A stretch of DNA of 30,557 bases from Alphaproteobacteria bacterium (GTDB lineage Bacteria; Pseudomonadota; Alphaproteobacteria; Rs-D84; SZUA-605): NCBI GenBank assembly GCA_031549385.1, contig JAVBPW010000008.1:1-30557 (forward strand), given 5' to 3'. This document shows, one piece after another, positions 3,622 through 30,557 of this stretch. Both the position numbers and the translations under genes were made by a program. The notes below the pieces were generated by a model that saw only the letters and a program-made list of their open reading frames with translations, did not search any database and was not told the origin of the DNA. Numbering within the stretch: position 1 is the stretch's first letter; each line of letters starts with the position of its first letter.

Positions 3622-6377
<2,756 letters not shown>

Positions 6378-6400
6378 GTTTTAATAAACAAAAGCAAAAT

Positions 6401-6441
6401 ATTCAAAGCAAAATAAAATCGCGATTTTTAAGCTTTTTTAC
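6401..6441 (+). other. 3' arm of the 23S precursor processing stem
   Basis: GCAAAATAAAATCGCGATTTTTAAGCTTTTTTACA pairs with 3451-3491. Confidence 0.8.
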
Positions 6442-6461
6442 AAAATCTGTATTGTTTAATC

Positions 6462-6578
6462 TGCTGGTGATTACTGCGGAGTTGACACACGCTATTCCAT
6501 CCCGAACTAGGCCGTGAAACACTCCAGCGCCGATGGTACTTTGCCCTAAGGCACGGGAGAGTAGGTCGTTGCCAGCAT
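6462..6578 (+). rRNA. rrf: 5S ribosomal RNA
   Basis: TGCTGGTGA...CCCGAACT...GTGAAAC...GCGCCGATGGTAC...GAGAGTAGGTCGTTGCCAGCAT. The terminal helix TGCTGG/CCAGCA is present. Confidence 0.93.
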
Positions 6579-6622
6579 ATTAAACAATATGATAAAATTA
6601 TGTTATAACTTATATTTTGAAT

Positions 6623-6650
6623 GGGCCCCTTTGAGGGCACTTTTTATTTT
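6623..6650 (+). terminator. Weak terminator at the end of the rrn operon
   Basis: Short GC hairpin GCCC..GGGC followed by TTTTTATTTT. Confidence 0.4.
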
Positions 6651-6683
6651 AAAAATTATTGAAAATATTTATAAGATCCTTTA

Positions 6684-6750
6684 TTGAGAAATTCAAAATT
6701 TATTCCTATATGTTTTTTGGAAGAAAATAAGGATTAAATTTTAAAAAATC
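6684..6750 (+). promoter_or_regulatory. Orphan promoter plus cassette-type leader with no convincing ORF behind it
   Basis: TTGAGA (6684-6689), 17-nt spacer, TATATG (6707-6712), then AAATTTTAAAAAATC (6736-6750). This is the DHFR-type leader variant plus one A. Only very short ORFs follow before the terminator at 6847. Confidence 0.4.
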
Positions 6751-6846
6751 TAACTACATTATTACTAATAAAAAATAGGCAATTTTAAACAACTGTAGAG
6801 TATGCTTAAGAGAAATTATGGGAGTTGTTTTGATTGTTTGTTTTTG

Positions 6847-6876
6847 TCGCCCCTAGCTTTTAGGGGCGAATTTTTT
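6847..6876 (+). terminator. Strong rho-independent terminator (plus strand)
   Basis: Stem TCGCCCCT (6847-6854) / AGGGGCGA (6862-6869), then the T-run 6871-6876. Confidence 0.75.
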
Positions 6877-6881
6877 GAAAT

Positions 6882-6905
6882 AAAAAAAGGTGAAAATTCA
6901 CCTTT
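6882..6905 (-). terminator. Rho-independent terminator of the minus-strand gene 6904-7350
   Basis: Stem AAAGGTG (6886-6892) / CACCTTT (6899-6905). On the minus strand it is followed by a 7-nt U-run (complement of the A-run 6882-6888). It overlaps the stop codon. Confidence 0.7.
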
Positions 6906-7350
6906 AATTTGTTTGACTGAGAGTAAAACATCTTTTAATTCTCAACATTACCATTGATATATTTCCAGGTAATTCTTTTGTGTTGAGTAGATATTGGAAG
7001 GCTCTCCAAACCATTTCTTCACGAAAACTTTGATTGCTTGTACCAGTATCATCCCAATCTAATTTTTCTAAGATTGGGGTCATGTTATCCCACAGATCTT
7101 CATGAAGAGTTTGAAGACCTTGTTCAAAGTCCAATAAAAGATGTACTTTTAATGTGCTCTCGGCAATACCGAGGTTACAATAATCTTCAACAGACATACC
7201 TTCTTCTTTATTTATAAAGGTGAAACTTTCTTCCTTTAACCACATTATTATTGCAAAAAATGCAAATTTTTTTGAGTAGGTTGAATCTTTCCTTAAAAGA
7301 AATCTGTTCAGCTCTTTTTGGAGGATTTCTCCCATTTCCTTTGTATTCAT
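6904..7350 (-). CDS. Hypothetical protein, 148 aa (leader-tagged cassette gene A)
   Basis: Long ORF in stop-rich AT-rich DNA, with its own TTGACT/TAAATT promoter, the AAACTTAAAAA leader 10 nt before the ATG, and its own terminator. No recognisable motif. Confidence 0.75.
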   Translation of the reverse strand: MNTKEMGEILQKELNRFLLRKDSTYSKKFAFFAIIMWLKEESFTFINKEEGMSVEDYCNLGIAESTLKVHLLLDFEQGLQTLHEDLWDNMTPILEKLDWDDTGTSNQSFREEMVWRAFQYLLNTKELPGNISMVMLRIKRCFTLSQTN

Positions 7351-7360
7351 ACTAATTTAT

Positions 7361-7371
7361 TTTTTAAGTTT
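7361..7371 (-). promoter_or_regulatory. Conserved leader motif AAACTTAAAAA (copy for gene A)
   Basis: The minus strand reads AAACTTAAAAA, then ATAAATTAGT, then ATG. No SD. Confidence 0.7.
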
Positions 7372-7377
7372 GATGTT

Positions 7378-7406
7378 AATTTAAGTGATTATTTATCCTA
7401 AGTCAA
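7378..7406 (-). promoter_or_regulatory. Sigma70-type promoter of gene A
   Basis: The minus strand reads TTGACT (7406-7401), 17-nt spacer, TAAATT (7383-7378). The leader motif starts 6 nt downstream. Confidence 0.6.
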
Positions 7407-7412
7407 GGCTAT

Positions 7413-7463
7413 TTGACAAAATTGTAATATTTTATAGACAAATTAGTAATTTAATTGTATTGT
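7413..7463 (+). promoter_or_regulatory. Promoter region of the DHFR gene, back to back with the gene A promoter
   Basis: TTGACAAA at 7413-7420, plus a second module TTATAGACAA (7431-7441) with a 17-nt spacer and TATTGT (7458-7463). The TTATAGACAA module recurs at 8030-8040. Confidence 0.5.
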
Positions 7464-7468
7464 TTTAT

Positions 7469-7482
7469 AAATTTTAAAAATC
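7469..7482 (+). promoter_or_regulatory. Leader motif variant AAATTTTAAAAATC (DHFR copy)
   Basis: Ends 6 nt before ATG 7489. No SD. Compare AAACTTAAAAATC at 23705-23717. Confidence 0.55.
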
Positions 7483-7488
7483 AAATAT

Positions 7489-8007
7489 ATGAGTAAAATA
7501 AATATTATTGCTGCAGTTGCTAAAAACTGGGGCATTGGTTATCAAGGAGGAATTCCTTGGAAATTGTCAGCAGACATGAAACAATTCAAAAAGCTTACTA
7601 TGGGTGAAAATCCCAATGTAATGAATACTGTGGTTATGGGGCGGAAAACTTTTCAAAGTCTTCCCAAAGGACCATTGCCGGGTAGAGTGAATGTTGTCCT
7701 GACTCGGGATGTTGATTTTAGCTATCCCGATGTTGTTGTGTTACATTCTTTTGAAGATGTTTTGAAAATGTCTGATGGTGCAACCGGTGAAATCTTTATT
7801 ATCGGTGGAGAGCAGGTTTATAAAGATGCTTTACCGTATGCAGATAGGATGTATTTAACATTGGTTTCTGCAAACCCACAATGCGATGCGTTTTTTCCTA
7901 AGTTTGATGCTTGGGATTGGGATCTTGTGTTGGATGAAATGTATTCGTGGGACGAAAAAAACGAATACTCTTACCGGTATTATTATTTAGAAAGAGGAGA
8001 AAATTAG
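7489..8007 (+). CDS. folA: Dihydrofolate reductase
   Basis: 172 aa with DHFR hallmarks: IAAVAKNWGIGYQGGIPW, VVMGRKTFQSLP, PLPGRVNVVLTR, IFIIGGEQVY. Confidence 0.9.
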   Translation: MSKINIIAAVAKNWGIGYQGGIPWKLSADMKQFKKLTMGENPNVMNTVVMGRKTFQSLPKGPLPGRVNVVLTRDVDFSYPDVVVLHSFEDVLKMSDGATGEIFIIGGEQVYKDALPYADRMYLTLVSANPQCDAFFPKFDAWDWDLVLDEMYSWDEKNEYSYRYYYLERGEN

Positions 8008-8029
8008 GAGCTTTATGCTCCTTTTTTTA
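8006..8029 (+). terminator. Rho-independent terminator of the DHFR gene
   Basis: AGGAGC (8006-8011) / GCTCCT (8017-8022), then a T-run. It overlaps the TAG stop. Confidence 0.75.
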
Positions 8030-8033
8030 TTTA

Positions 8034-8062
8034 TAGACAATTTTGAATTTAGAATATAAGAT
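8034..8062 (+). promoter_or_regulatory. Promoter of cassette gene C
   Basis: TAGACA (8034-8039) inside the repeated TTATAGACAA module. TATAAG or TAAGAT lies 15-17 nt downstream. Confidence 0.45.
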
Positions 8063-8080
8063 TGTTTTAAATTCAAAATC

Positions 8081-8091
8081 AAACTTAAAAA
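8081..8091 (+). promoter_or_regulatory. Conserved leader motif AAACTTAAAAA (gene C)
   Basis: Exact 11-mer, 8 nt before ATG 8100. No SD. Confidence 0.7.
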
Positions 8092-8099
8092 TTTTATCT

Positions 8100-8561
8100 A
8101 TGTTTAAATTAATTTTTTCAGAAACCCCCCAAAAGAATTTTAAAGGTTTATCAGATGCATTTTTGCATATTCTTTCAAAAAAGCAATTTAGTGTTGATGA
8201 ATTAAATGGTGTTGTTAGATTGACTTTGTTTAATTCTGGTGTTGTTGATGGTATTTATTGGGATCCGGAGCCTGCAGACCTTGCTGCACGTATTCAAATG
8301 GATAAATTTGGAAATAAATATTTCTTATTTGGAAAATATGTTCCAGGGGAAGTTTTCTTTGCTGGTAGTAAGTATTGTAAATGGTCGCCTGTTTCAATTC
8401 CAAAAGATGCTTTTGTTATTACTGATAATGGAAATGTTAGAAATAAGGCACTGAGATGTGTATTGACTCATTGTGGTAATATCTTTCAACTTCATGAGCC
8501 TAATGAAGTTAGGGCTTTTGAAAGTGAAAATGAATTTACTGCTTGGACTTTTGATTTTTGA
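8100..8561 (+). CDS. Hypothetical protein, 153 aa (cassette gene C, paralog of gene D)
   Basis: The ORF track starts at TTG 8043, but that would place the promoter and leader inside the gene. ATG 8100 sits right after the leader motif. The C-terminal half is collinear with 8659-9102. Confidence 0.75.
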   Translation: MFKLIFSETPQKNFKGLSDAFLHILSKKQFSVDELNGVVRLTLFNSGVVDGIYWDPEPADLAARIQMDKFGNKYFLFGKYVPGEVFFAGSKYCKWSPVSIPKDAFVITDNGNVRNKALRCVLTHCGNIFQLHEPNEVRAFESENEFTAWTFDF

Positions 8562-8581
8562 CCCCGAAAAGGGGTCTTTTT
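8560..8581 (+). terminator. Rho-independent terminator of gene C
   Basis: GACCCC-GAAAA-GGGGTC hairpin followed by TTTTTATTT. Confidence 0.8.
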
Positions 8582-8590
8582 ATTTAAATA

Positions 8591-8618
8591 TTGACAAATA
8601 ATATAATAAGTTTAGGAT
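8591..8618 (+). promoter_or_regulatory. Promoter of cassette gene D
   Basis: TTGACAAA (8591-8598), 16-nt spacer, TAGGAT (8613-8618). Confidence 0.5.
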
Positions 8619-8638
8619 TAATAGCATATTAAATTTTC

Positions 8639-8649
8639 AAACTTAAAAA
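8639..8649 (+). promoter_or_regulatory. Conserved leader motif AAACTTAAAAA (gene D)
   Basis: Exact 11-mer, 9 nt before ATG 8659. No SD. Confidence 0.7.
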
Positions 8650-8658
8650 AATCTATAT

Positions 8659-9102
8659 ATGAAAGAAATAAAAGAAGAAGCTCAACAGGAAATTATCCAG
8701 TTGATGTTTGATCCTTTGATTGATTTGGAAATTCATAAGCAATACCTTATTGAGTTTTCAAAAAATTTAGCTCCTACTGGATTGTTTTCTCCAGAAAATA
8801 AATCTGTGATATTTAATTCTAAAGCTTTTGGCTTTGAGAAAGATGGAACAGTTTACCTTTTTGGTAAAAAGTTATGGACTTTGGATGTTATTTATACATA
8901 CAGTGGTAAAATTTCTCCAAATTCTCCTAACCAAGCCGCTCCGGATACTTTTTATTCTAGGATTGGTTTGAATGATGACAAAAGTTTCCAACGGGTGCTT
9001 GGTCATTGTAGGCTTTTGAATGGGGCTATTGCTTCATTTTATAACGATGTCAAATTCGTTATCTTTGAAACTGAACAAGAATTTTTGAATTATGAATTTT
9101 AA
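8659..9102 (+). CDS. Hypothetical protein, 147 aa (cassette gene D, paralog of gene C)
   Basis: Shares ordered motifs with gene C: Y(F)LFGK, then VL(T/G)HC 46-47 residues later, then the C-terminal FE(S/T)E.EF. Confidence 0.75.
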   Translation: MKEIKEEAQQEIIQLMFDPLIDLEIHKQYLIEFSKNLAPTGLFSPENKSVIFNSKAFGFEKDGTVYLFGKKLWTLDVIYTYSGKISPNSPNQAAPDTFYSRIGLNDDKSFQRVLGHCRLLNGAIASFYNDVKFVIFETEQEFLNYEF

Positions 9103-9153
9103 GTAGAAAAATTTTTTGTTTAGATGTAAAATTATATTAATATTTTAAAAAAT

Positions 9154-9164
9154 AAACTTAAAAA
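9154..9164 (+). promoter_or_regulatory. Conserved leader motif AAACTTAAAAA (mini-ORF pair)
   Basis: Exact 11-mer, 2 nt before ATG 9167. A possible weak promoter precedes it: TTGTTT (9116-9121), 17-nt spacer, AATATT. Confidence 0.6.
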
Positions 9165-9166
9165 AT

Positions 9167-9319
9167 ATGAAAACAAAAATTAAAAATCTTTGGGACGATA
9201 TTCTTTGGTCCAACACCTTTACTTTTGTGGTGGTGTTATGTGCGTTTTATGGAGTGTATTTTGCATTTTATTTTCCAACAAAGTGGTTGGTTGAAATAAT
9301 CAAAACATCATTATTATGA
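9167..9319 (+). CDS. Small single-pass membrane peptide, 50 aa (not in the ORF track)
   Basis: Hand translation: MKTKIKNLWDDILWSNTFTFVVVLCAFYGVYFAFYFPTKWLVEIIKTSLL. Basic N-terminus plus one hydrophobic helix. Sits directly behind the leader motif. Confidence 0.45.
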   Translation: MKTKIKNLWDDILWSNTFTFVVVLCAFYGVYFAFYFPTKWLVEIIKTSLL

Positions 9320-9456
9320 AAAGGAATTTTTTGATTTGGAAAACACTTTGGTGGGAATGCAGAGATTTTACAATATTGAAAGTTATATTGTTTCTTGTTG
9401 TGGCCATAGATCTTATACCGCTTGCGGTAGTACATCTTATTAGATGTGTGTTTTAA
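9316..9456 (+). CDS. Small single-pass membrane peptide, 46 aa (not in the ORF track)
   Basis: ATGA start/stop overlap with the previous mini-ORF. Hand translation: MKRNFLIWKTLWWECRDFTILKVILFLVVAIDLIPLAVVHLIRCVF. Same architecture as the upstream peptide. A terminator follows immediately. Confidence 0.4.
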   Translation: MKRNFLIWKTLWWECRDFTILKVILFLVVAIDLIPLAVVHLIRCVF

Positions 9457-9486
9457 AAAGGGGCTTTTTACAGCCCCTTTGTTTTT
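9457..9486. terminator. Bidirectional terminator between the mini-ORFs and PFOR
   Basis: AAAGGGGCT (9457-9465) / AGCCCCTTT (9472-9480), with an A-run before and a T-run after. Confidence 0.8.
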
Positions 9487-12400
9487 TATACTTCGTTTTT
9501 GAATTTAGAAATGCTTGAGTAAATAGTATTTCTGTATTTGATGTTTCTTTTTGCACTTCTTATTAATCTGTTATAGTGCTTTTCATCTAATCGTTTTACT
9601 ATTCCATAGCGGTTTTCTTTTTCTACATATGATGCAAGTTCACCATCACCTAATTGGCTGTCCAATTGTAATGGAGAAACTCCCTTTCTTACATAGAGTT
9701 TTGGATCATAACGATATAATGGCCAGTGACCTGTCTTTACTGCTTCTTTTTGTTGGTTCAATTGGAACTTCATGTCTATTCCATGTAGAACACAAGGAGC
9801 GTAAGCTATAATCAATGATGGACCATTGTGTGCTTCGGCTTCTCTTATCGCTTTTACTGCTTGAGCTTCATTTGCACCTAATGCTATTCTTGCTACATAA
9901 ACGTTTCCTGATGCCATTGCAAGAAGACCTAAATCCTTCTTTGGTAGAACTTTACCAGTTGATGCAAACTTTGCTGCTGCACCTATTGGAGTTGATTTAG
10001 ATTGTTGCCCACCTGTGTTTGAATATACTTCAGTATCCAATACAAATATATTTACATTTTTGTCTGAATATAAAATATGGTCAAGACCACCATAGCCTAT
10101 GTCATAAGCCCAACCATCACCACCCATAATCCATAATGATTTCTTTATTAAAGATTGAGTTAATTCTGATAGTTCTTTTGCTTTTTCACTTTTGATGTTT
10201 TTCAATTTAGCATTAAGTTCTTTTACTAATGCTCTTTGTTCTTTTATTTCAACATCATTTGATTGTTTGTTATTTATTATTTGATTGATGAAATCTAAAC
10301 CTAGTTCATCTTTTAAATCTTTTAATAATATAACTGCAGTTTCTGTGTTTTTATCTAGTGCTAAACGCATTCCAAATCCATATTCTGCATTGTCTTCAAA
10401 TAATGAATTTGACCACGCTGGGCCACGTCCGTCTGAATTCTTTGTGTATGGAGTTGTTGGTAAGTTTCCACCGTAAATAGATGAACATCCTGTTGCGTTT
10501 GATATTAACATTCTGTCACCAAAGAGTTGTGTTAATAATTTAACATATGGAGTTTGTCCACATCCTGCACATGACCCTGAAAATTCAAATAATGGAGTTA
10601 CTAATTGATTATGTTTTGTTATGTTCATATTCAATAGCGATTTGTCTATATCAGGTAATGATGCACAATATTCAAATGCTCTTTCTTTTTGTTCGAGATT
10701 GTTTTGAATATCTTCCATTACTAATGCAGGAATTTCTTTTGTTTTCATTGGACAGTTTTCTACACATAATCCACAGCCTGTACAGTCGTGTGGGGATATT
10801 GTGATAGCGTAATTATATCCTTGTCCCAATTCTGGAGTTTTATAATCTGCACTTTTGAAATTATCTGGTGCATTTTCTAATTGTTCTTTTGTTAGCACTT
10901 TTGATCTGATGGATGCATGAGGACATACTAATGAACATTTTCCACATTGAATACAACTTTCTAAATTCCAACAAGGTACTTGAGATGCTATTGATCTTTT
11001 TTCGTATTTTGTTGTACCTGATGGAAATTGACCGTTTGTATCTGAGAATGCTGATACAGGAAGATCATCTCCTTTCCCTTTTATCATTTGACTTATTACA
11101 TTCTTTACAAAGTCTGGGGCTGATAATGGAACATTGTCTGACATTAATGGAGCTTTCTTACTTACAGCTTTTGGATGATCAAAACGATATAGATTTTCTA
11201 CTGCTTTATCTATAGCTGCTATATTCATTTCAATAATTTTTTCACCTTTTTTACCATATGTCTTTTTTACTGACCTTTTAATATAGTCAGAAATTTTTTC
11301 AAAATCAGCTAGCTTTGATAAATAGAAGAAACATGTTTGCATAATTGTGTTTGTTCTAAAACCTAATCCTAAATCACGAGCAAGACGACCTGCATCTATT
11401 ATGTAAATAGTTAAATTTTTATCAAGAATTTGCTTTTGAACTTCTTGTGGTATTTGATCCCAAAGAGTATCTGCTTCGTAAGGAGAATTGATTAATAATA
11501 TTCCACCTTCTTTTGCATTAGCTAATACATCTTGTTTAAAGAACATTGGAAAATGAGATACTGATGTGAAGTCTGCATTTTCTACTAGGTATGGACTTTT
11601 TATTTGTGTGTCTTTTATACGCAAGTGAGAACATGTAAATCCACCTGATTTTTTAGAATCATATACACTGTAATTTTGTACGTACTTTCCAGTATTGATA
11701 TTTATTATGTCAGCTGAATTTTTTGATGCTCCAACTGTTCCGTCTGAACCTAATCCAAAGAACATTGCTTTATAAGCATCATCTTTGAAGTCATATTTTA
11801 AATCATCAAGTGATAATTTTGTTACATCATCATTTATTCCTACTACAAATTCTTTTTTAGGATTTGGTTTTGATAGTTCTTCAAATATTTGTTTTACATG
11901 GTATGGTGTGAATTCTTTTGAACCTAGTCCATATCTTCCACCTATTACTTCTATACCTTCAAGTTTGTTTCTTTTTAATGCTGCTACTACATCCAAGAAT
12001 AATGGTTCACCAACTGAACCAGGTTCTTTTGTTCTGTCGAGTACTGCTATTTTTTTTACGTTTGATGGAAGTAGTTTTGAAAACTTTGCAACTGGAAAAG
12101 GGCGGTATAGGCGAATCTTTATTAAACCTAACTTTGCACCTTTTTTGTTTTCTTGGTCTATTGTTTCTTCTATAATATCACAAGATGATCCCATTGATAC
12201 TATAATGTTTTCTGCATCTTTGTTTCCATAGTATTCTACTGTGTCATAGTATCTTCCTGTTTTGTTTCCAAATTCGTTTAATACATCTTCTACTATTGAA
12301 ATTACATTATTATAAGTTGGGTTTTGAGCTTCACGACCTTGGAAGAATACGTCTGGGTTTTGAGCTGTTCCTCTTATACATGGTTTTTCTGGTGTTAAAC

Positions 12401-13019
12401 CATTATCTCTTTTTTCTTTAATTAATTTTTTATCTAATAATGATAAAATAGTTTCATCTGAAATTTGTTCTATTGATGTTATTTCATGTGATGTTCTGAA
12501 ACCATCAAAATAGTGTAAGAATGGAACTTTTGCTTTTAATGTTGATAAATGAGCAACCAATGCCATGTCATGTGATTCTTGGACATTGTTTGAACCTAAT
12601 ATTGCGAATCCTGTTTCTCTTACTGTCATGATGTCACTGTGGTCGCCAAAGATTGATAGAGCATGAGTTGCTACTGCTCTGGCTGCTACATGCATTACAA
12701 ATTGATGGCCTTCGCCGGCTATTTTATACATGTTTGGTATCATTAATAATAAACCTTGAGAAGCTGTGAATGTTGATACCTGAGCTCCAATTTGAAGAGC
12801 ACCATGTACTGCTCCTATAGCTCCTGCTTCTGATTGCATGATTGTAACGTTTGCTGTGTTACCGAAAATGTTTTTTCTTTGTTTTGATGAGAAAGTTTCA
12901 AAAATTTCTGCCATAGTTGATGAGGGGGTTATCGGATAGATAACAGCCAAATCAGATAAACGGTAGGCTATATCTGCTGCTGCTTCATTGCCATCGCAGA
13001 CGTAACTATTTTTAAACAT
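9486..13019 (-). CDS. nifJ: Pyruvate:ferredoxin (flavodoxin) oxidoreductase, single-chain
   Basis: 1177 aa. Two 4Fe-4S ferredoxin motifs (CIQCGKCSLVCP, CTGCGLCVENCP), the TPP-binding GGDGWAYDIGYGG, and the typical PFOR N-terminus DGNEAAA..AY. SD AAGGA. Confidence 0.95.
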   Translation of the reverse strand: MFKNSYVCDGNEAAADIAYRLSDLAVIYPITPSSTMAEIFETFSSKQRKNIFGNTANVTIMQSEAGAIGAVHGALQIGAQVSTFTASQGLLLMIPNMYKIAGEGHQFVMHVAARAVATHALSIFGDHSDIMTVRETGFAILGSNNVQESHDMALVAHLSTLKAKVPFLHYFDGFRTSHEITSIEQISDETILSLLDKKLIKEKRDNGLTPEKPCIRGTAQNPDVFFQGREAQNPTYNNVISIVEDVLNEFGNKTGRYYDTVEYYGNKDAENIIVSMGSSCDIIEETIDQENKKGAKLGLIKIRLYRPFPVAKFSKLLPSNVKKIAVLDRTKEPGSVGEPLFLDVVAALKRNKLEGIEVIGGRYGLGSKEFTPYHVKQIFEELSKPNPKKEFVVGINDDVTKLSLDDLKYDFKDDAYKAMFFGLGSDGTVGASKNSADIININTGKYVQNYSVYDSKKSGGFTCSHLRIKDTQIKSPYLVENADFTSVSHFPMFFKQDVLANAKEGGILLINSPYEADTLWDQIPQEVQKQILDKNLTIYIIDAGRLARDLGLGFRTNTIMQTCFFYLSKLADFEKISDYIKRSVKKTYGKKGEKIIEMNIAAIDKAVENLYRFDHPKAVSKKAPLMSDNVPLSAPDFVKNVISQMIKGKGDDLPVSAFSDTNGQFPSGTTKYEKRSIASQVPCWNLESCIQCGKCSLVCPHASIRSKVLTKEQLENAPDNFKSADYKTPELGQGYNYAITISPHDCTGCGLCVENCPMKTKEIPALVMEDIQNNLEQKERAFEYCASLPDIDKSLLNMNITKHNQLVTPLFEFSGSCAGCGQTPYVKLLTQLFGDRMLISNATGCSSIYGGNLPTTPYTKNSDGRGPAWSNSLFEDNAEYGFGMRLALDKNTETAVILLKDLKDELGLDFINQIINNKQSNDVEIKEQRALVKELNAKLKNIKSEKAKELSELTQSLIKKSLWIMGGDGWAYDIGYGGLDHILYSDKNVNIFVLDTEVYSNTGGQQSKSTPIGAAAKFASTGKVLPKKDLGLLAMASGNVYVARIALGANEAQAVKAIREAEAHNGPSLIIAYAPCVLHGIDMKFQLNQQKEAVKTGHWPLYRYDPKLYVRKGVSPLQLDSQLGDGELASYVEKENRYGIVKRLDEKHYNRLIRSAKRNIKYRNTIYSSISKFKNEV

Positions 13020-14974: not shown

Positions 14975-16458
14975 TTTGTATGTGCAACTTTTCTTTTAAA
15001 TAAAATTGATCCGCAATATATTAAATATCCTATTCCAAAGAATGCTGCCATTGCTATTTTTACAAATGGGATAAATTCTGTTTTTGATATAAATGAAAAT
15101 AATACGCCAAGTATTGCATTTGCAAATAATACGAGGAAAATCTTTCTCCAAACTCCTCTTTTTAAATGTGTGTAGTTTCTTTTTATTATTAAAACTATGT
15201 AAATTAAAAATGGTACTAATGAAGAGAAGAAACTTGCATATGGGATTGCTAGCATTCCTATTTTCTTTGTTAATGTAAATAGTAAAATTAAGTTTGTTAC
15301 AAATGAGAAGAATGCTATGATTGCTGGTATTTTTGTGTTGTTTCTTGCAAAAAACATGCTTCCAAATACTCGGTTGAATAAAATGATTAATACATTTAAT
15401 CCTAAGATTTTTAACATTGCTGCTGTTTGTAAAGTGTCGTTTAAATTAAATGATCCGTATTGGAATAATAGTCCAACTATATCAACTGATAATAAACACA
15501 TTGCAAGAGCGCATGGTAAACCTAGAAAAATATTTAATAGGAATGAATTGTTCTGAAGAAAATGTTTTTCTTTTAAGTTAGTTGTTTGTAAGTTTGATGA
15601 TAAATGTGGAAGCAATACTGTTGAAATTGCTGCTCCTATGATTCCTATTGGAAGAAGGTAAATTCTTTGTGCAAAATAAAACCATGATACAGCACCATCA
15701 AATAAAGATGCAAAGATTGAGCCTACTAAAATATTTAGGTAATAAATTCCAGCTCCACATATTGCTGGTACAAATTTTAATAAGAATTCTTTTGTTTCAG
15801 GTGTTAGTTTTGGAAGTTTTATGCGAACTGATATACCTTGCTTTCTTACAAAGTAATACATGAATATTAATTGAACTATTCCAGAAATAAATACCCCATA
15901 AGATAATGCTACTGCTACGTTTGGTGTAATATCTTTAAATGCAAAAATTGATGCTATTAAAACTATGTTATAAATTATGGGTGTTAATGCTGGAATTAAA
16001 AATTTTTTTAAGTTTTGCATTACGGAAATGAAAAATGTTGTTAGTGATATGAACATTAAAAATGGGAACATTATTTTCGCTAAATGAACAGTTGTTTTGA
16101 ATTTTTCACCTGTGAAGCCTGGAGCAAAGACTGTTATTACTTGTGGCATGAAAATTATAAAGACTACTGTTAATAAGGAAAGTGTTATGAATAAAAATGA
16201 AAAACTGTCATTTAAAAAATTTTGTTGCTTTTCTTTATCATGACTTACTTTTGCAAGAGTTGGTATAAATGATGATGAAAAAGCACCTTCAGCAAATAAC
16301 TCACGAAATGTATTTGGGATACGTAGAGCAATTAAAAAAGCTTGAGACAGATATGACGAGCCTAAGAAAAAGGCTATAAATTGATCACGTACAAAGCCTA
16401 ATACTCGGCTTACCATAGTAAGTAAACTCACTGAAAAAATTGATTTAAAAAATCCCAT
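14971..16458 (-). CDS. murJ: Lipid II flippase MurJ (MviN)
   Basis: 495-aa polytopic protein. The N-terminus ...MVSRVLGFVRDQFIAFFLG is typical of MurJ. Its stop overlaps the dprA stop by 4 nt (convergent). Confidence 0.88.
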   Translation of the reverse strand: MGFFKSIFSVSLLTMVSRVLGFVRDQFIAFFLGSSYLSQAFLIALRIPNTFRELFAEGAFSSSFIPTLAKVSHDKEKQQNFLNDSFSFLFITLSLLTVVFIIFMPQVITVFAPGFTGEKFKTTVHLAKIMFPFLMFISLTTFFISVMQNLKKFLIPALTPIIYNIVLIASIFAFKDITPNVAVALSYGVFISGIVQLIFMYYFVRKQGISVRIKLPKLTPETKEFLLKFVPAICGAGIYYLNILVGSIFASLFDGAVSWFYFAQRIYLLPIGIIGAAISTVLLPHLSSNLQTTNLKEKHFLQNNSFLLNIFLGLPCALAMCLLSVDIVGLLFQYGSFNLNDTLQTAAMLKILGLNVLIILFNRVFGSMFFARNNTKIPAIIAFFSFVTNLILLFTLTKKIGMLAIPYASFFSSLVPFLIYIVLIIKRNYTHLKRGVWRKIFLVLFANAILGVLFSFISKTEFIPFVKIAMAAFFGIGYLIYCGSILFKRKVAHTN

Positions 16459-16523
16459 ATTTATTACTTTCTTTTTTAATTTTAATATATTATATTATAT
16501 ACATTATAAGGAAAAAATAAACA

Positions 16524-23667: not shown

Positions 23668-23696
23668 TTGACAAATATTAAGTTTTATGCTATATT
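23668..23696 (+). promoter_or_regulatory. Promoter of cassette gene F
   Basis: TTGACAAA (23668-23675), 17-nt spacer, TATATT (23691-23696). Confidence 0.6.
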
Positions 23697-23704
23697 ATTA
23701 GTAT

Positions 23705-23715
23705 AAACTTAAAAA
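23705..23715 (+). promoter_or_regulatory. Conserved leader motif AAACTTAAAAA (gene F)
   Basis: Exact 11-mer, 8 nt after the -10 and 10 nt before ATG 23726. No SD. Confidence 0.7.
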
Positions 23716-23725
23716 TCAAAAAAAC

Positions 23726-24172
23726 ATGAATATAACTGAGAAAGTCCGGGAGAACCTGGAAAAATATAAGCCGCTGGGTGTGACAGAAAAGGAATTGTTT
23801 GCTTTTCCTACCCAATTAGGTAGGGATCTTTGGCAGCTTGAAAGCAAATTTGTGGAGATTGTCCGCAGAAGAAATGCTACCTATCTTAGGTATTGGATAT
23901 TCGATAAAGGGCGGTTGCCCAAGCAAAAATACCGGAAGTTGCCGGTAAGCCAAATACAAGGGGAAGACATTGTTAAAGTTTTTTTCCTGAAAGATTGGAA
24001 TCTTTTGCTTGAGCAATACTTGATAACTGAGGGGCATTTGCCAGATCCGTTTGTTCATCTTGCTTTTTTATCAGGACATTTCAAAAGATTTTGTACTGAT
24101 AGGCGGTTTGAACTGCTTGATCATCAGAAAAAGCAATACGCTTATTATAGCAATTTAATGAAGGGGGAGTAA
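23726..24172 (+). CDS. Hypothetical protein, 148 aa (cassette gene F)
   Basis: Long ORF with its own promoter, leader and terminator. Its first 60 nt are 26/60 G+C by hand count, against 14/60 for the first 60 nt of lptA. Confidence 0.75.
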   Translation: MNITEKVRENLEKYKPLGVTEKELFAFPTQLGRDLWQLESKFVEIVRRRNATYLRYWIFDKGRLPKQKYRKLPVSQIQGEDIVKVFFLKDWNLLLEQYLITEGHLPDPFVHLAFLSGHFKRFCTDRRFELLDHQKKQYAYYSNLMKGE

Positions 24173-24190
24173 TCTCCCTTTCTTTTTTAT
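24161..24190 (+). terminator. Rho-independent terminator of gene F
   Basis: GGGAG (24165-24169) / CTCCC (24174-24178) with the stop codon in the loop, then TTTCTTTTTT. Confidence 0.6.
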
Positions 24191-24194
24191 CTGA

Positions 24195-24223
24195 TTGACA
24201 AAATTTAACGTAGTTGTTATGGT
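24195..24223 (+). promoter_or_regulatory. Promoter of cassette gene G
   Basis: TTGACAAA (24195-24202), 17-nt spacer, TATGGT (24218-24223). Confidence 0.55.
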
Positions 24224-24243
24224 TGTTTCATCTGATAATCTTT

Positions 24244-24254
24244 AAACTTAAAAA
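24244..24254 (+). promoter_or_regulatory. Conserved leader motif AAACTTAAAAA (gene G)
   Basis: Exact 11-mer, 4 nt before ATG 24259. No SD. Confidence 0.7.
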
Positions 24255-24258
24255 TAAT

Positions 24259-24744
24259 ATGAATAAAAAATTTGAAGCGTCTTGGGTTGCCACTACGGTG
24301 GAGGCTAATTATCTTTCATTTCCGAAGTATTTGAAGGATATGATTGATTTTGATCAAAATTGGTTTACAGTCATTAATTTCTGGATGATGTGTGATTATG
24401 ATAAATCACGCTTTTCCGATTTTAGCAAAGGTGAGTATTTCTTTGCTTACTTACCTGAAAATGCTCGCGATGAATGTAAAAAATATTTACCGTTTGATGA
24501 AGAAAATGAATTAAGTTTCATTAAGTCGGTATATTTGCGTTGTGAAGACAAAGGATTTGAGTTTTTGAAAACATATTTGCTTTTCAAAAAAGCAATTCTG
24601 GATTTGGTTTTGGATTTTGCTATTTTGACTGGAAATTATGATGTGGTTGATTTTTGTAGCGCTTTTAAGCTTAGTGAAATTCAACAAAAGAAAATTGATT
24701 TCTATGACAAAATTTTGGAAAGAGATTTAGATTTAATTTCTTAA
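24259..24744 (+). CDS. Hypothetical protein, 161 aa (cassette gene G)
   Basis: The track start TTG 24214 lies inside the promoter. ATG 24259 follows the leader motif. The 3' end overlaps the convergent rpe stop by 12 nt. Confidence 0.72.
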   Translation: MNKKFEASWVATTVEANYLSFPKYLKDMIDFDQNWFTVINFWMMCDYDKSRFSDFSKGEYFFAYLPENARDECKKYLPFDEENELSFIKSVYLRCEDKGFEFLKTYLLFKKAILDLVLDFAILTGNYDVVDFCSAFKLSEIQQKKIDFYDKILERDLDLIS

Positions 24745-27650: not shown

Positions 27651-30557
27651 ATGAATTTCAAGAAAATTTTATTACCACTAATTGGAATTATAGGATTGTT
27701 TTCAACAAATGTTATAGCGCAAAGTGCAACATGGACAGGTGCTGATGCTCCAATTCCTAATCCTGCATATTATTCTTGTGGTGGAAGTATAGATGGTGGA
27801 AATAACGATTGTATTACTATACTTAGTTGGTCTAACTCTTCAAATATATCAGTAACAGGTGTTGGTAGTGAAGATAATTATGCAAACTTTATTGCAAATC
27901 TTAACATTAGTAGTTCTTATTCAGCATTATTGGATATAAGATCTGGAGTTAATTATTTAAACATTTATAATGATGTTGGTAATTCTATGACTGCAGATAC
28001 TTCTATTATAAGAGTATTAAGTAATGCAGAATATCATGGGAATATTGTTAATTTAGGTACTATGAGAAATACTAATACTGGTACAAGTTATACAATGCAA
28101 TTTATCAGTAAATTATACGGTAATATTTATAATGGTTGGAATGGAATAACAGGGGCAGAATCAGTTACAAATGATAATGCAAGAATTACAGCAACTGCAA
28201 CATCTGTAGTTCAAAGACAGATTATTATTTTCAATGATGGTATGACTGGAATTATAGATAATTCAGGTCTTATTGGGACATATAATCCCAAAACTGGTAC
28301 TGTATACATAGATGATGCAATAAGATTTACTACGGGAGATTATGGATTAACAGGGGATACAGGTATAAGATTCATAAACAGAGAAACAGGTATTATAGGA
28401 GGAGAATATGGGGGGTTATCTATTGAAACTGGTGCAACAGTTTATGGAGATATTATAAATTTAGGGTTAATGACTAGTCAATCAATAGCATCAGGATCAG
28501 GGATTTCTAATCTTACTAGTACTGGCGTTATAAATGGTAATATTTATAATGGTTGGGATGGTAATGGTAGTACATCAATAAATACCTCAGCTAAAGTTAC
28601 TGGATACACAGGAATGTCATTATCAAACTTTTCTGGAGGTTTATATAACTATGGTATAATAGGAGATACTTACTTAACAAGAAATGGAACTACAGCTAAC
28701 GCTGTACAAGGTCTTAATCTTATAATGATGGGTGTAGCAAAAGAGGTAATAAATTACAAAGGAGCTAAAATTATAGGTTCAACATATGGTATGTATGTTG
28801 GTGGAACTTTTACAAATGGAGTAACAAACTTAGGATTAATACAAGGTGGAACATCTTTAACAACCCATTATGGGTTATGGTTTGGCATGACTGGTAATCT
28901 AATAAATGGAAGTATAACAAATACAGTAGAAGAAAATTTACAAGCAATTATTTCTGGATATTCAGGCATTAAATTAAATGGAGGTACAGGTAACATAGAA
29001 AATTATGGTGTTATACAAGGAACGGCATTTGGTATTGATATCCCAATAGGAGCATATGCTCTAAATGGAAAAGTTATAAATTACGAAGGTGGGGTAATTC
29101 AAGGTGGTAGTTATGCTCTTTACAATCCAGCAATAGGTATTTTTTTAAATTATCAAGGTAATGGAACATTAGTTGGAGGGATTTATACAGCAGGTTCAAG
29201 TGATGGTGGGTATATATTTTCTAATATGAACAGAACACCTATTAATAAAACAAATAGCATATCAGGAGGTACAGCAAATAATATAAATTATTATGGTGGA
29301 ATTGTTAATAGCATTGATTATGGAACAACTATTTTAAAATTACAATACTCTCAATCAGATATTAATTTAAATTGGACACAACCTGCTCAAATAACAGGCG
29401 TTCCTGGATACTTAACTCTTAATGGTATAATAAATAATATAACAATTGATGGTAATTCAATAACAAGTACAGGAAAATTTTTAATTGCTCAAACAACAAA
29501 TCAAGCAATAACATATTCAAATTTATCAACAATCACAGCAACAGATAATAACACACATGCTAATGGATATGGTTTTGATTTAACTAATAAATCATTAATA
29601 TATTCTTATGACTATTCAGTAACTTCTCAAAATAATAAGAGATTGTGGTTATTCTATGCACTTAATTGGTGGACAGAAGGTGATGCTTCTCATTTAGAAG
29701 CAAAATGGTTTAGTGTTTCTGGTACATATGCTTCAACAAGGATAAATTCATCAGATATACAAATAAGAAACATTGGAACATCTTCAGACTTTAAAACTTT
29801 AAATATAAATAACTCTATAACTTCTGTTAACAACGATGCTGCTATAAAAATTATTGATGGTGAAAATTATTTAAATATATTTGTATATCAACCAATAACA
29901 GGAAAAGCTGGAGAAAAAGCAATAAGTTTTGAAGGTGGAAATTTCTATGGTTATATAAGTAATAATTCTAATCTAATAGGAATAAATGGAACTGCAACAG
30001 GTTATGCTATATATAATGCTGGTTTAAATCAGGTAAATTATAGAGGTTCAGGTATATTAACAGGTAAGTTATATTCAGGTGGAGGTTTTATTTTCTCTGA
30101 AATGATAAGTGCACCAATTGCAAATACAATAGAAGGTAATGGAAAAATTTCATACTATAGTGGAACAATAAATAGTATTGATTATGGTTATACACAATTA
30201 AATCTAGCATACACTGCAGGCAATATGACTGTTGCAAAAGTAACAACACCAGGAGCATTGGAATTCAACGGAGTAATATTAAATTATACTGGAACAATTG
30301 GAACAGGAAGATACTTAGTTGGAACATCAACAAATGGTACGGTATCACAATTAAATCTATCTACAAGAATTAATGGTAGTTCCACTATTCCTACAAATTA
30401 TGAAGTGACATATTATACAGCAAATTCAAACAAAGAATTGTGGATGGCATACACACTTGCATATTGGACACAAGGTGATAATTCACACTTAGATATAGCA
30501 AGAAGCTTTACATGCACAGGTAATGACTGTACATCAACAGTTGCATCAACTGATATC
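27651..30557 (+). CDS. Large secreted repetitive surface protein, autotransporter-passenger or beta-helix-like (partial, over 969 aa, runs off the window)
   Basis: Absent from the ORF track because no stop is reached. Hand translation is open for 969 codons from ATG 27651. Signal peptide MNFKKILLPLIGIIGLFSTNVIAQSA. Gly/Asn/Thr/Ile-rich with recurring G.I.N.G..G short repeats and long internal duplications. Confidence 0.85.
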   Translation, partial: MNFKKILLPLIGIIGLFSTNVIAQSATWTGADAPIPNPAYYSCGGSIDGGNNDCITILSWSNSSNISVTGVGSEDNYANFIANLNISSSYSALLDIRSGVNYLNIYNDVGNSMTADTSIIRVLSNAEYHGNIVNLGTMRNTNTGTSYTMQFISKLYGNIYNGWNGITGAESVTNDNARITATATSVVQRQIIIFNDGMTGIIDNSGLIGTYNPKTGTVYIDDAIRFTTGDYGLTGDTGIRFINRETGIIGGEYGGLSIETGATVYGDIINLGLMTSQSIASGSGISNLTSTGVINGNIYNGWDGNGSTSINTSAKVTGYTGMSLSNFSGGLYNYGIIGDTYLTRNGTTANAVQGLNLIMMGVAKEVINYKGAKIIGSTYGMYVGGTFTNGVTNLGLIQGGTSLTTHYGLWFGMTGNLINGSITNTVEENLQAIISGYSGIKLNGGTGNIENYGVIQGTAFGIDIPIGAYALNGKVINYEGGVIQGGSYALYNPAIGIFLNYQGNGTLVGGIYTAGSSDGGYIFSNMNRTPINKTNSISGGTANNINYYGGIVNSIDYGTTILKLQYSQSDINLNWTQPAQITGVPGYLTLNGIINNITIDGNSITSTGKFLIAQTTNQAITYSNLSTITATDNNTHANGYGFDLTNKSLIYSYDYSVTSQNNKRLWLFYALNWWTEGDASHLEAKWFSVSGTYASTRINSSDIQIRNIGTSSDFKTLNINNSITSVNNDAAIKIIDGENYLNIFVYQPITGKAGEKAISFEGGNFYGYISNNSNLIGINGTATGYAIYNAGLNQVNYRGSGILTGKLYSGGGFIFSEMISAPIANTIEGNGKISYYSGTINSIDYGYTQLNLAYTAGNMTVAKVTTPGALEFNGVILNYTGTIGTGRYLVGTSTNGTVSQLNLSTRINGSSTIPTNYEVTYYTANSNKELWMAYTLAYWTQGDNSHLDIARSFTCTGNDCTSTVASTDI
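28119..28556 (+). repeat. Intragenic repeat with a 417-nt (139-aa) period
   Basis: The identical 21-mer GGTAATATTTATAATGGTTGG (GNIYNGW) occurs at 28119-28139 and 28536-28556, with similar flanking context (LG.M...GNIYNGW.G). Confidence 0.8.
29287..30557 (+). repeat. Intragenic module duplication of about 265-290 aa
   Basis: YYGGIVNSIDYG...LWLFYALNWWTEGDASHL (from 29287) is collinear with YYSGTINSIDYG...LWMAYTLAYWTQGDNSHL (from 30153). The W-T-x-G-D module openers lie at 27733, 29669 and 30465. Confidence 0.8.

Follow-up and report, generated by a model that had tools for sequence, protein, structure and literature searches.

We analysed a 30,557-bp window, the whole of contig JAVBPW010000008.1, which derives from an AT-rich (~30% G+C) diderm bacterium; the gene sample comprises the 24 genes of this one contig. 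The gap between its ribosomal RNA operon (rrn) and its PFOR gene holds five or six promoter-gene-terminator units: an orphan unit lacking an open reading frame (ORF), gene A, a dihydrofolate reductase (DHFR) gene, gene C, and gene D together with two mini-ORFs (m1 and m2). We put at about even the chance that the gap holds accessory genes in a row, having arrived by lateral transfer or at any rate being foreign in composition, each of them a self-contained expression unit. Within the window, an 11-nt leader stands where most core genes have a Shine-Dalgarno sequence, a feature that the original prediction for this stretch had missed. Three traits coincide in the window: a leader in place of a Shine-Dalgarno sequence, unusual codon usage and absence of homologues; the exceptions are gene C for codon usage and DHFR for homology.

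The original prediction had also treated the region as a single island. The same cassettes with the identical 11-nt leader are found again at 23.7-24.7 kb, where two genes, hyp1 and hyp2, sit between a porin gene and rpe, both with TTGACAAA as the -35 box. The cassettes are thus better described as a dispersed gene class than as one island.

Predicted self-contained units between rrn and PFOR

The units lie in 6578-9486, a region that fills the whole gap from the end of the 5S rRNA gene (6577) to the PFOR stop codon (9486), and the number and placement of units proposed earlier were recovered. Terminators are clearly over-represented: a scan of 6400-9700 gave 9 terminator-like sites against 1.6 ± 1.4 in shuffled sequences, and the five hairpins listed in the original prediction all sit where it had placed them and proved strong, folding at -9.4 to -16.6 kcal/mol (z -3.0 to -4.7). 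Only two intergenic terminators of comparable strength occur in the other 20 kb, one in the bamD/lptB gap and the other 3' of cassette hyp1.

Hexamers resembling a -35 box (TTGACA, TAGACA or TTGACT) are present in every intergenic gap, with TAnnnT 16-17 nt downstream. Generic σ70-like matches were not enriched in the 6400-9700 scan (18 against 16.3 ± 4.0 in shuffles); the strict pattern TTGACA-N16/17-TAnnnT was found four times in the window against ~1.2 expected, and three of the four precede cassette genes. The near-consensus -35 boxes noted earlier lie where they are expected upstream of the units, and our promoter calls, which rest on position and on the strict pattern, are positional predictions. 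At three places the T-run of a terminator lies only 5-10 nt from the next -35 box (8029/8034, 8581/8591 and 24190/24195), forming composite terminator/promoter junctions. When aligned, the junctions have a mean column identity of ~44%, and the only parts they share are the -35 box and the 11-mer leader.

Four ATG-initiated ORFs of at least 140 aa fall within these 2.9 kb, a length reached in none of 300 composition-matched simulations (longest 136 aa), which argues that A, DHFR, C and D are real genes. A, C and D also show the coding pattern GC1 > GC2 > GC3 (G+C at the first, second and third codon positions), and the ORFs fit exactly into the spaces between promoter-leader and terminator. The paralogy proposed for C and D is detectable but weak (28% over 83 aa by BLASTP, E 4e-4). 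The two mini-ORFs had been described as coupled membrane peptides. Their ATGA overlap and the single hydrophobic segment in each (19-aa hydropathy maxima 2.0 and 2.7) agree with that description, while ORFs of at least 45 aa arise here by chance at 3.3 ± 1.8 per 2.9 kb, so the case for m1 and m2 comes from leader and context and their coding status is moderately supported. Neither sequence was present in the protein collection searched (~15 billion proteins).

The DHFR assignment was confirmed by a full-length match to Pfam DHFR_1 (PF00186; 1.1e-52, 178 bits against a gathering cut-off of 25). Along its entire length the protein shares 37% identity with E. coli FolA; it keeps the PW, MGRxT, LPGR and IGG motifs and an Asp aligned with E. 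coli Asp27, has a best PDB match with E 7e-34, and is apparently an intact FolA-type enzyme. It shares with chromosomal FolA-type DHFRs the full-length Pfam match and the conserved catalytic and cofactor motifs, and differs from them in its own promoter and terminator, its lack of a thyA partner and of a Shine-Dalgarno sequence, and its G+C at third codon positions (GC3) of 0.32. The best database homologues are 44-49% identical, the named ones coming from mixed phyla and none from the Alphaproteobacteria. The best of them lies in a thyA-folA operon, whereas here the gene stands alone, without a thyA neighbour. The best phage DHFR is 45% identical, and the protein matches phrog_316 at 3e-48. 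It falls below the cut-offs of all trimethoprim-resistance Dfr models (NCBIfam exception models), the best score being 118 bits against the 300 required for DfrD/G/K. The 138-nt divergent region between gene A and DHFR (7351-7488) carries three -35-like hexamers, TTGACT on the minus strand, TTGACA and TAGACA, and shared regulation of the two genes from this region is possible.

The orphan unit has no credible ORF, only a 51-aa frame running through two terminators and a 12-codon frame. The latter, MGVVLIVCFCRP at 6819-6857, lies within the 3' arm of the orphan-unit hairpin. Rfam, permissive mode included, returned no family anywhere in the island, the orphan unit among it. Most simply, the unit would be a small RNA (a candidate of ~150 nt) or a decayed or empty cassette minus its gene.

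An 11-nt leader without a Shine-Dalgarno sequence

The original prediction had remarked on a shared leader, and its recurrence is highly non-random. The window contains seven exact copies of the 11-mer AAACTTAAAAA, where 0.36 would be expected and no more than 4 appeared in any of 500 simulations. All but one of these copies are followed, after 2-10 nt, by the start codon ATG of an ORF of 50-161 aa (A, C, D, m1, hyp1 and hyp2). With up to one mismatch allowed, 17 copies are found against 8.2 ± 2.6 expected, and a degenerate version, AAATTTTAAAAA(A)TC, is present before DHFR and in the orphan unit. Since the sequence flanking the 11-mer is not conserved between copies, the 11-mer itself appears to be maintained or under selection, rather than recently copied within a longer repeat. 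The spacing from leader to ATG (2-10 nt) is tighter than that from leader to -10 box (6-21 nt), which favours a role in translation initiation or at the mRNA level over one as an operator.

The tail of the 16S rRNA is a normal CCUCC anti-Shine-Dalgarno sequence. All eight cassette ORFs lack a Shine-Dalgarno sequence, their duplexes with the anti-Shine-Dalgarno being -1.3 kcal/mol or weaker, against -4.9 to -10.5 kcal/mol in ~10 of the 14 core genes with secure starts. The leader is not a mere consequence of monocistronic status, because the monocistronic gene that starts at 27651 has a promoter and an AAGGAG Shine-Dalgarno sequence. Within the window, the exact leader followed by an ORF is found only before genes that are orphans or atypical in codon usage.

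Two further occurrences lie in or near murJ: the seventh exact copy is inside the gene (16005-16015, minus strand), with no ORF start behind it, and a one-mismatch copy is at 16473-16483, 14 nt upstream of the murJ start codon. Two candidate identities for the leader were rejected. As a CtrA box (TTAA-N7-TTAA) its spacing proved unsuitable on inspection, and as the -10 box of a leaderless mRNA its distance to the ATG (2-10 nt) is too variable. A literature search for the 11-mer returned only unrelated primer and sequence matches, and a scan of IMG/VR for the promoter-plus-leader pattern gave single, unclustered matches per contig, as by chance.

In the mechanism we propose, a housekeeping σ70-type polymerase would transcribe each unit from its own T[T/A]GACA -35 and TAnnnT -10 boxes, producing a short A/U-rich 5' leader without a Shine-Dalgarno sequence in which the conserved element AAACUUAAAAA lies 2-10 nt ahead of the start codon AUG. 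By acting as an unstructured enhancer rich in A and U, AAACUUAAAAA may drive Shine-Dalgarno-independent initiation; equally, it may be a common handle for one post-transcriptional regulator. A GC-rich hairpin and U-run would close each transcript, often 5-10 nt short of the next -35 box, and these terminators would insulate the units from each other, from transcription running on out of rrn, and from PFOR, which is convergent. DHFR would be a working FolA-type enzyme recruited into the cassette format, while A, the paralogues C and D and the two membrane mini-peptides would be lineage-restricted accessory proteins, and the ORF-less orphan unit a small structured RNA or a cassette minus its gene.

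A bolder version, which we consider improbable, is that the units represent a portable expression cassette of an undescribed kind in a deep-branching AT-rich bacterium. Each would combine a σ70 promoter, a strictly conserved 11-nt leader that lacks a Shine-Dalgarno sequence, a payload and a terminator, and would be installed at several chromosomal sites, the leader providing common control of imported genes at the level of translation. The leader would then be bound by one factor or used in a specialised initiation route, foreign orphan genes and a housekeeping-type DHFR would have been installed alike, and in the orphan unit the cassette would be empty or encode only RNA. The 11-nt leader, as a possible new element of regulation or of initiation independent of Shine-Dalgarno pairing, lends itself to direct testing and is the part most worth attention. 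Should it turn out to be the lineage's general signal, the finding would shrink to an ordinary islet of lineage-specific genes beside rrn.

Table 1. Positions of the cassette features and of the flanking rrn and PFOR genes in the window
Feature	Position	Strand	Details
rrn operon, one copy	16S 1277-2781; 23S 3626-6375; 5S 6463-6577		tRNA-Ile and tRNA-Ala in spacer
Presumed rrn terminator, left border of region	6623-6650	+	weak hairpin and T-run; -9.1 kcal/mol, z -0.75
Orphan unit	6684-6876	+	weak promoter-like site TTGAGA-N17-TATATG
Orphan unit leader, degenerate	6736-6752	+	AAATTTTAAAAAATC
Orphan unit hairpin	6771-6845	+	22-bp, imperfect; -19.2 kcal/mol, z -3.5; directly before terminator
Orphan unit terminator	6847-6876	+	strong; -16.6 kcal/mol, z -3.8
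Gene A terminator	6886-6905	-	stem overlaps A stop codon, T-run to ~6878; -9.4 kcal/mol, z -3.8
Gene A	6904-7350	-	148 aa; predicted helical cytoplasmic protein
Gene A promoter and leader	7361-7406	-	TTGACT (7406-7401), 17 nt, TAAATT (7383-7378)
Gene A leader, exact	7371-7361	-	AAACTTAAAAA; 10 nt upstream of ATG
DHFR promoter and leader	7413-7488	+	TTGACA (7413); TAGACA (7435)-N17-TATTGT (7458-7463)
DHFR leader, degenerate	7470-7483	+	AAATTTTAAAAATC
DHFR gene	7489-8007	+	172 aa; FolA type
DHFR terminator	8006-8029	+	-12.2 kcal/mol, z -3.6; gene C -35 box 5 nt further
Gene C promoter	8034-8062 (promoter and leader 8034-8099)	+	TAGACA-N17-TAAGAT
Gene C leader, exact	8081-8091	+	AAACTTAAAAA; ATG 8 nt downstream
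Gene C	8100-8561	+	153 aa; start at ATG 8100 is the form in the protein collection
Gene C terminator	8560-8581	+	-12.3 kcal/mol, z -3.0; gene D -35 box 10 nt further
Gene D promoter	8591-8618 (promoter and leader 8591-8658)	+	TTGACA-N16-TAGGAT
Gene D leader, exact	8639-8649	+	AAACTTAAAAA; ATG 9 nt downstream
Gene D	8659-9102	+	147 aa; without own terminator
Possible internal promoter before m1	9104-9132 (with leader 9104-9166)	+	TAGAAA-N17-TAAAAT
m1 leader, exact	9154-9164	+	AAACTTAAAAA; 2 nt before m1
Mini-ORF m1	9167-9319	+	50 aa; one hydrophobic segment
Mini-ORF m2	9316-9456	+	46 aa; one hydrophobic segment; ATGA overlap with m1
Bidirectional terminator, right border	9457-9486	both	D/m1/m2 unit (+) -14.6 kcal/mol, z -4.2; PFOR (-) -15.5 kcal/mol, z -4.7
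PFOR	9486-13019	-	stop at 9486
Cassette hyp1	23668-24190	+	TTGACA-N17-TATATT (23668-23696); exact leader 23705-23715
hyp1 ORF	23726-24172	+	148-aa orphan; terminator 24160-24190
Cassette hyp2	24195-24744	+	TTGACA-N17-TATGGT (24195-24223); exact leader 24244-24254
hyp2 ORF	24259-24744	+	161-aa orphan

Codon usage, homology and the origin of the cassette genes

The compositional signal lies in codon usage. GC3 is 0.28 in A, 0.25 in D, 0.31 in m1 and 0.30 in m2, and no 150-codon window of core sequence reaches these values or that of DHFR; hyp2 has a GC3 of 0.28, and hyp1, at 0.42, is the most deviant gene in the window (z +6.5 to +7.1, compared with +3.1 to +3.7 for gene A). Because strand affects G at third positions (G3), the test was repeated against plus-strand core genes only. 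The island genes other than C still reached z +2.9 to +4.6, and the range for A, DHFR, D, m1, m2, hyp1 and hyp2 against plus-strand core windows was +2.9 to +7.1, with no core window at the level of any of the seven. The signal is clearest in rare codons: when hyp1 and hyp2 are counted among the cassette genes, 8 of their 38 Arg codons are CGG, compared with none of 181 in 17 core genes (p 4e-7), 10 of their 35 Pro codons are CCG, compared with 2 of 219 in core genes (p 4e-8), and TTA is depleted (p 8e-9). In all, GC3 and rare codons deviate strongly in five of the six island ORFs, and bulk G+C does not. The deviant composition put forward in the original prediction is therefore borne out for GC3 and rare codons, and fails for bulk G+C and for gene C. 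Such a signature suggests that most cassette genes have spent a shorter time than the core genes under the AT pressure of this genome, which would fit their lateral transfer from a donor of somewhat higher G+C. A foreign origin would also suit the named best matches of DHFR, which are non-alphaproteobacterial, whereas the 16S rRNA and the best PFOR matches listed point to the Alphaproteobacteria.

Apart from DHFR, the cassette proteins are orphans. No island protein other than DHFR matched Pfam, NCBIfam, PHROGs or PADLOC, and hyp1 and hyp2 found no family in Pfam, PHROGs or PADLOC. A word-indexed search of 5.8e9 protein clusters with A and C/D returned only the queries themselves, an exhaustive hidden Markov model search of 1.84e9 representatives with a C/D profile matched only C and D, and PDB sequence searches with A, C/D, hyp1 and hyp2 gave nothing significant. 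Concatenated A, C, D, m1, m2, hyp1 and hyp2 had no tblastn match in 50,697 phage records or in 72,556 plasmids, and IMG/VR scans with A, C/D, hyp1 and hyp2 were empty. AlphaFold2 (AF2) models were unusable (pLDDT 33 for gene C, 42 for gene A).

The rest of the window places these genes among ordinary core functions. Besides PFOR it encodes plsY, dprA, murJ, bamD, lptB/A/C, kdsD, a radical-SAM gene, queH, the porin gene, rpe, ftsA and fmt, and, as stated in the original prediction, several of these form overlapping operons (plsY-dprA, kdsD-lptC-lptA-lptB and ftsA-rpe). The gene at 27651-30557 (plus strand) runs off the end of the contig; it encodes at least 969 aa with a signal peptide and no Pfam match, and with its own extended -10 promoter and AAGGAG Shine-Dalgarno sequence it is monocistronic in a native style, in contrast to the cassettes. 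The only tRNAs detected are the pair in the rrn spacer, and the 23S rRNA match, ~2750 nt against a model of 2925 positions, is rather short for a bacterial 23S. Minus-strand core genes favour A-ending codons (GTA in 138 of 205 Val codons) and plus-strand core genes T- or G-ending ones (GTT 86 and GTG 19 of 133), and cumulative GC skew climbs across the entire contig.

The 16S rRNA is closest to Alphaproteobacteria at ~83%, as compared with rRNA operons in a plasmid collection, and the two best PFOR matches among those listed are labelled uncultured Alphaproteobacteria. Among the matches listed from GTDB representative genomes and JGI metagenomes, PFOR relatives are 54-57% identical at best; PFOR is usually well conserved, yet here it is at most 57% identical to any listed match. 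PFOR and each island protein in the collection of ~15 billion proteins are singletons at 90% identity. The lineage behind the contig thus seems to have been sampled very poorly. At the 160 distant PFOR loci listed, neither DHFR nor A, C, D, plsY or dprA adjoins PFOR.

Several observations weigh against a row of foreign accessory genes. The original prediction spoke of a higher-GC island, and this does not hold: bulk G+C is 0.3043 across 6684-9486 and 0.3047 in the remaining non-rRNA window, 500-nt windows of the island range from 0.28 to 0.32 save inside DHFR (0.39), and DHFR is the sole GC-richer gene (G+C 0.38). The two hand counts behind that claim, 29/60 at 7631-7690 and 14/60 at the start of lptA, are correct and are both local extremes. 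Gene C has a GC3 of 0.17 and ordinary, native codon usage. Plus-strand core genes are also richer in G3, so part of the G3/T3 excess is a strand effect, and as the window holds no ribosomal-protein genes to compare with, an expression-linked codon bias is possible. Orphan status does not discriminate, because the whole organism lacks close relatives. Native genes (rrn, a methyltransferase gene, kdsD and the large secreted protein) share σ70-type promoters, and neither mobility nor phage genes were found in the window, nor any att-like repeat or tRNA target. Pairing of the leader with 16S rRNA was considered and rejected, the longest complement being 6 nt in a universally conserved segment. Finally, the sample is 24 genes on one 30-kb contig.

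It is possible, though on the unlikely side, that the cassette genes are native, were inherited from the ancestors of a poorly sampled lineage and happen to be expressed strongly and individually, with the leader as an ordinary non-Shine-Dalgarno signal of monocistronic genes and the GC3 values as a product of expression and strand. The background-level bulk G+C, the native codon usage of gene C, the strand effect on G3, promoters of the same type as native ones and the lack of mobility genes all agree with this, as do the housekeeping function of DHFR in a window where fmt implies folate use and the expectation that a lineage without close relatives would show orphans even if they were native. 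It accounts poorly for CGG and CCG codons, which are nearly absent from 17 core genes on both strands and frequent in the cassettes, and for PFOR and the porin gene, which are likely to be highly expressed and have ordinary GC3. Nor would it lead one to expect the monocistronic native gene at 27651 to use AAGGAG instead of the leader, or the leader to precede, in the window, only orphan or codon-atypical genes.

Comparison with known systems

The reading of compositionally foreign accessory units invites comparison with phage morons, to which the original prediction had likened them. Morons, as described in HK97 and HK022, are independent units with their own promoter and terminator and a composition unlike the surrounding genes, which implies that they were transferred horizontally; their products are often small proteins without assigned function, and they are, by definition, inserted in phage or prophage genomes (PMC3594210). 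Predicted -35/-10 sites and strong terminators likewise flank A, DHFR, C and the D-m1-m2 unit. The neighbours here, however, are rrn, PFOR, the porin gene and rpe, with no phage gene (Pfam, PHROGs) or phage homologue, and the deviation is confined to GC3 and rare codons, bulk G+C being 0.304 against 0.305. The likeness to morons or other accessory genes is therefore supported in part, by the promoter-gene-terminator architecture and by GC3 and rare codons, while a phage link is unsupported, as the orphans had no match in PHROGs, phage records or IMG/VR.

Promoter-early stem-loops (PeSLs) resemble the architecture still more closely. In these, a composite terminator stem-loop directly abuts a strong σ70-like promoter; they repeat between small ORFans in plastic regions amid the conserved blocks of T4-type phages, include a Shine-Dalgarno sequence, and are alike enough to recombine, giving rise to mini-circles (PMC2839356, PMC4122927). 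A terminator likewise abuts the next promoter at the three composite junctions of our window. The setting differs in being a bacterial chromosome, the junctions are only ~44% identical and show no sign of exchange, and strict conservation is limited to the 11-nt leader, which lacks a Shine-Dalgarno sequence. Membership fails for both classes because there is neither phage context nor phage homologue, and because the junctions are unlike those of recombining PeSLs.

These likenesses could also be read as the remnant of a decayed prophage or mobile element, carrying true morons or PeSL-type cassettes with promoter, leader and terminator as the element's early-gene signals. Independent promoters and terminators with deviant composition fit the definition of morons (PMC3594210), a T-run followed by a -35 box within 5-10 nt is the arrangement of PeSLs beside ORFans in T4-type phages (PMC2839356, PMC4122927), and deviant codon usage and a DHFR, a common phage gene (phrog_316, 3e-48), would both be in keeping. 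We nonetheless judge this origin to be distinctly unlikely, as no gene for a phage structural or replication protein, integrase or repressor occurs in the window, phages, plasmids and IMG/VR offer no match to A, C, D, m1, m2, hyp1 or hyp2, the best phage DHFR (45%) is no closer than the best bacterial one (49%), the dissimilar junctions offer little substrate for PeSL-type homologous exchange, and the cassettes occupy two separate sites amid core genes. A classical genomic island is not supported either, since no tRNA target was found and since, as the original prediction had observed, no integrase, transposase or flanking direct repeat is present in the window.

It is very improbable that the ORFs besides DHFR are spurious and the region a non-coding spacer with terminators, for although they lack homologues and confident structure models and m1 and m2 are of chance size, A, C and D (147-153 codons) exceed every ORF in 300 simulations, follow GC1 > GC2 > GC3 and fit exactly between promoter-leader and terminator, and C and D are paralogous.

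Genes for dihydrofolate reductases (dfr) are classic integron cassettes; integron cassettes are usually promoterless, with attC sites of 57-141 nt. An integron-like or other site-specific gene-cassette array has next to no probability here, and an integron array proper is excluded, even though the region does present a same-strand array of small (~150-aa) orphan ORFs including a DHFR, with an inverted repeat behind each. Those repeats are 17-24-nt GC stems with T-runs, that is, intrinsic terminators and not attC sites; sequence inspection found no GTTRRRY/RYYYAAC cores at the cassette borders; there is no attI, no ORF of the window encodes IntI or another tyrosine recombinase, and the upstream neighbour is rrn. 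The cassettes have their own promoters, and the DHFR is no known resistance Dfr, scoring 118 bits against a cut-off of 300.

If the reading of laterally acquired or compositionally foreign units is true, foreign codon usage, orphan status and a non-Shine-Dalgarno signal would be united in one gene class, giving a clean case from nature of imported genes being expressed and insulated within a reduced, AT-rich genome, and a chromosomal counterpart to phage morons and PeSLs. For the leader itself, the nearest parallels are A/U-rich, Shine-Dalgarno-independent leaders, which include enhancers dependent on protein S1 and the 'epsilon' element of T7 gene 10, UUAACUUUA. Epsilon works together with a Shine-Dalgarno sequence and has been proposed to pair with 16S rRNA. 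The leader is similarly a short element a few nucleotides 5' of the AUG, and its core, AACUU(U)AA, resembles epsilon; it differs in having neither a Shine-Dalgarno sequence nor a 16S complement longer than 6 nt. The cassettes are best described as chromosomal moron-like or PeSL-like orphan units joined by a conserved non-Shine-Dalgarno leader.

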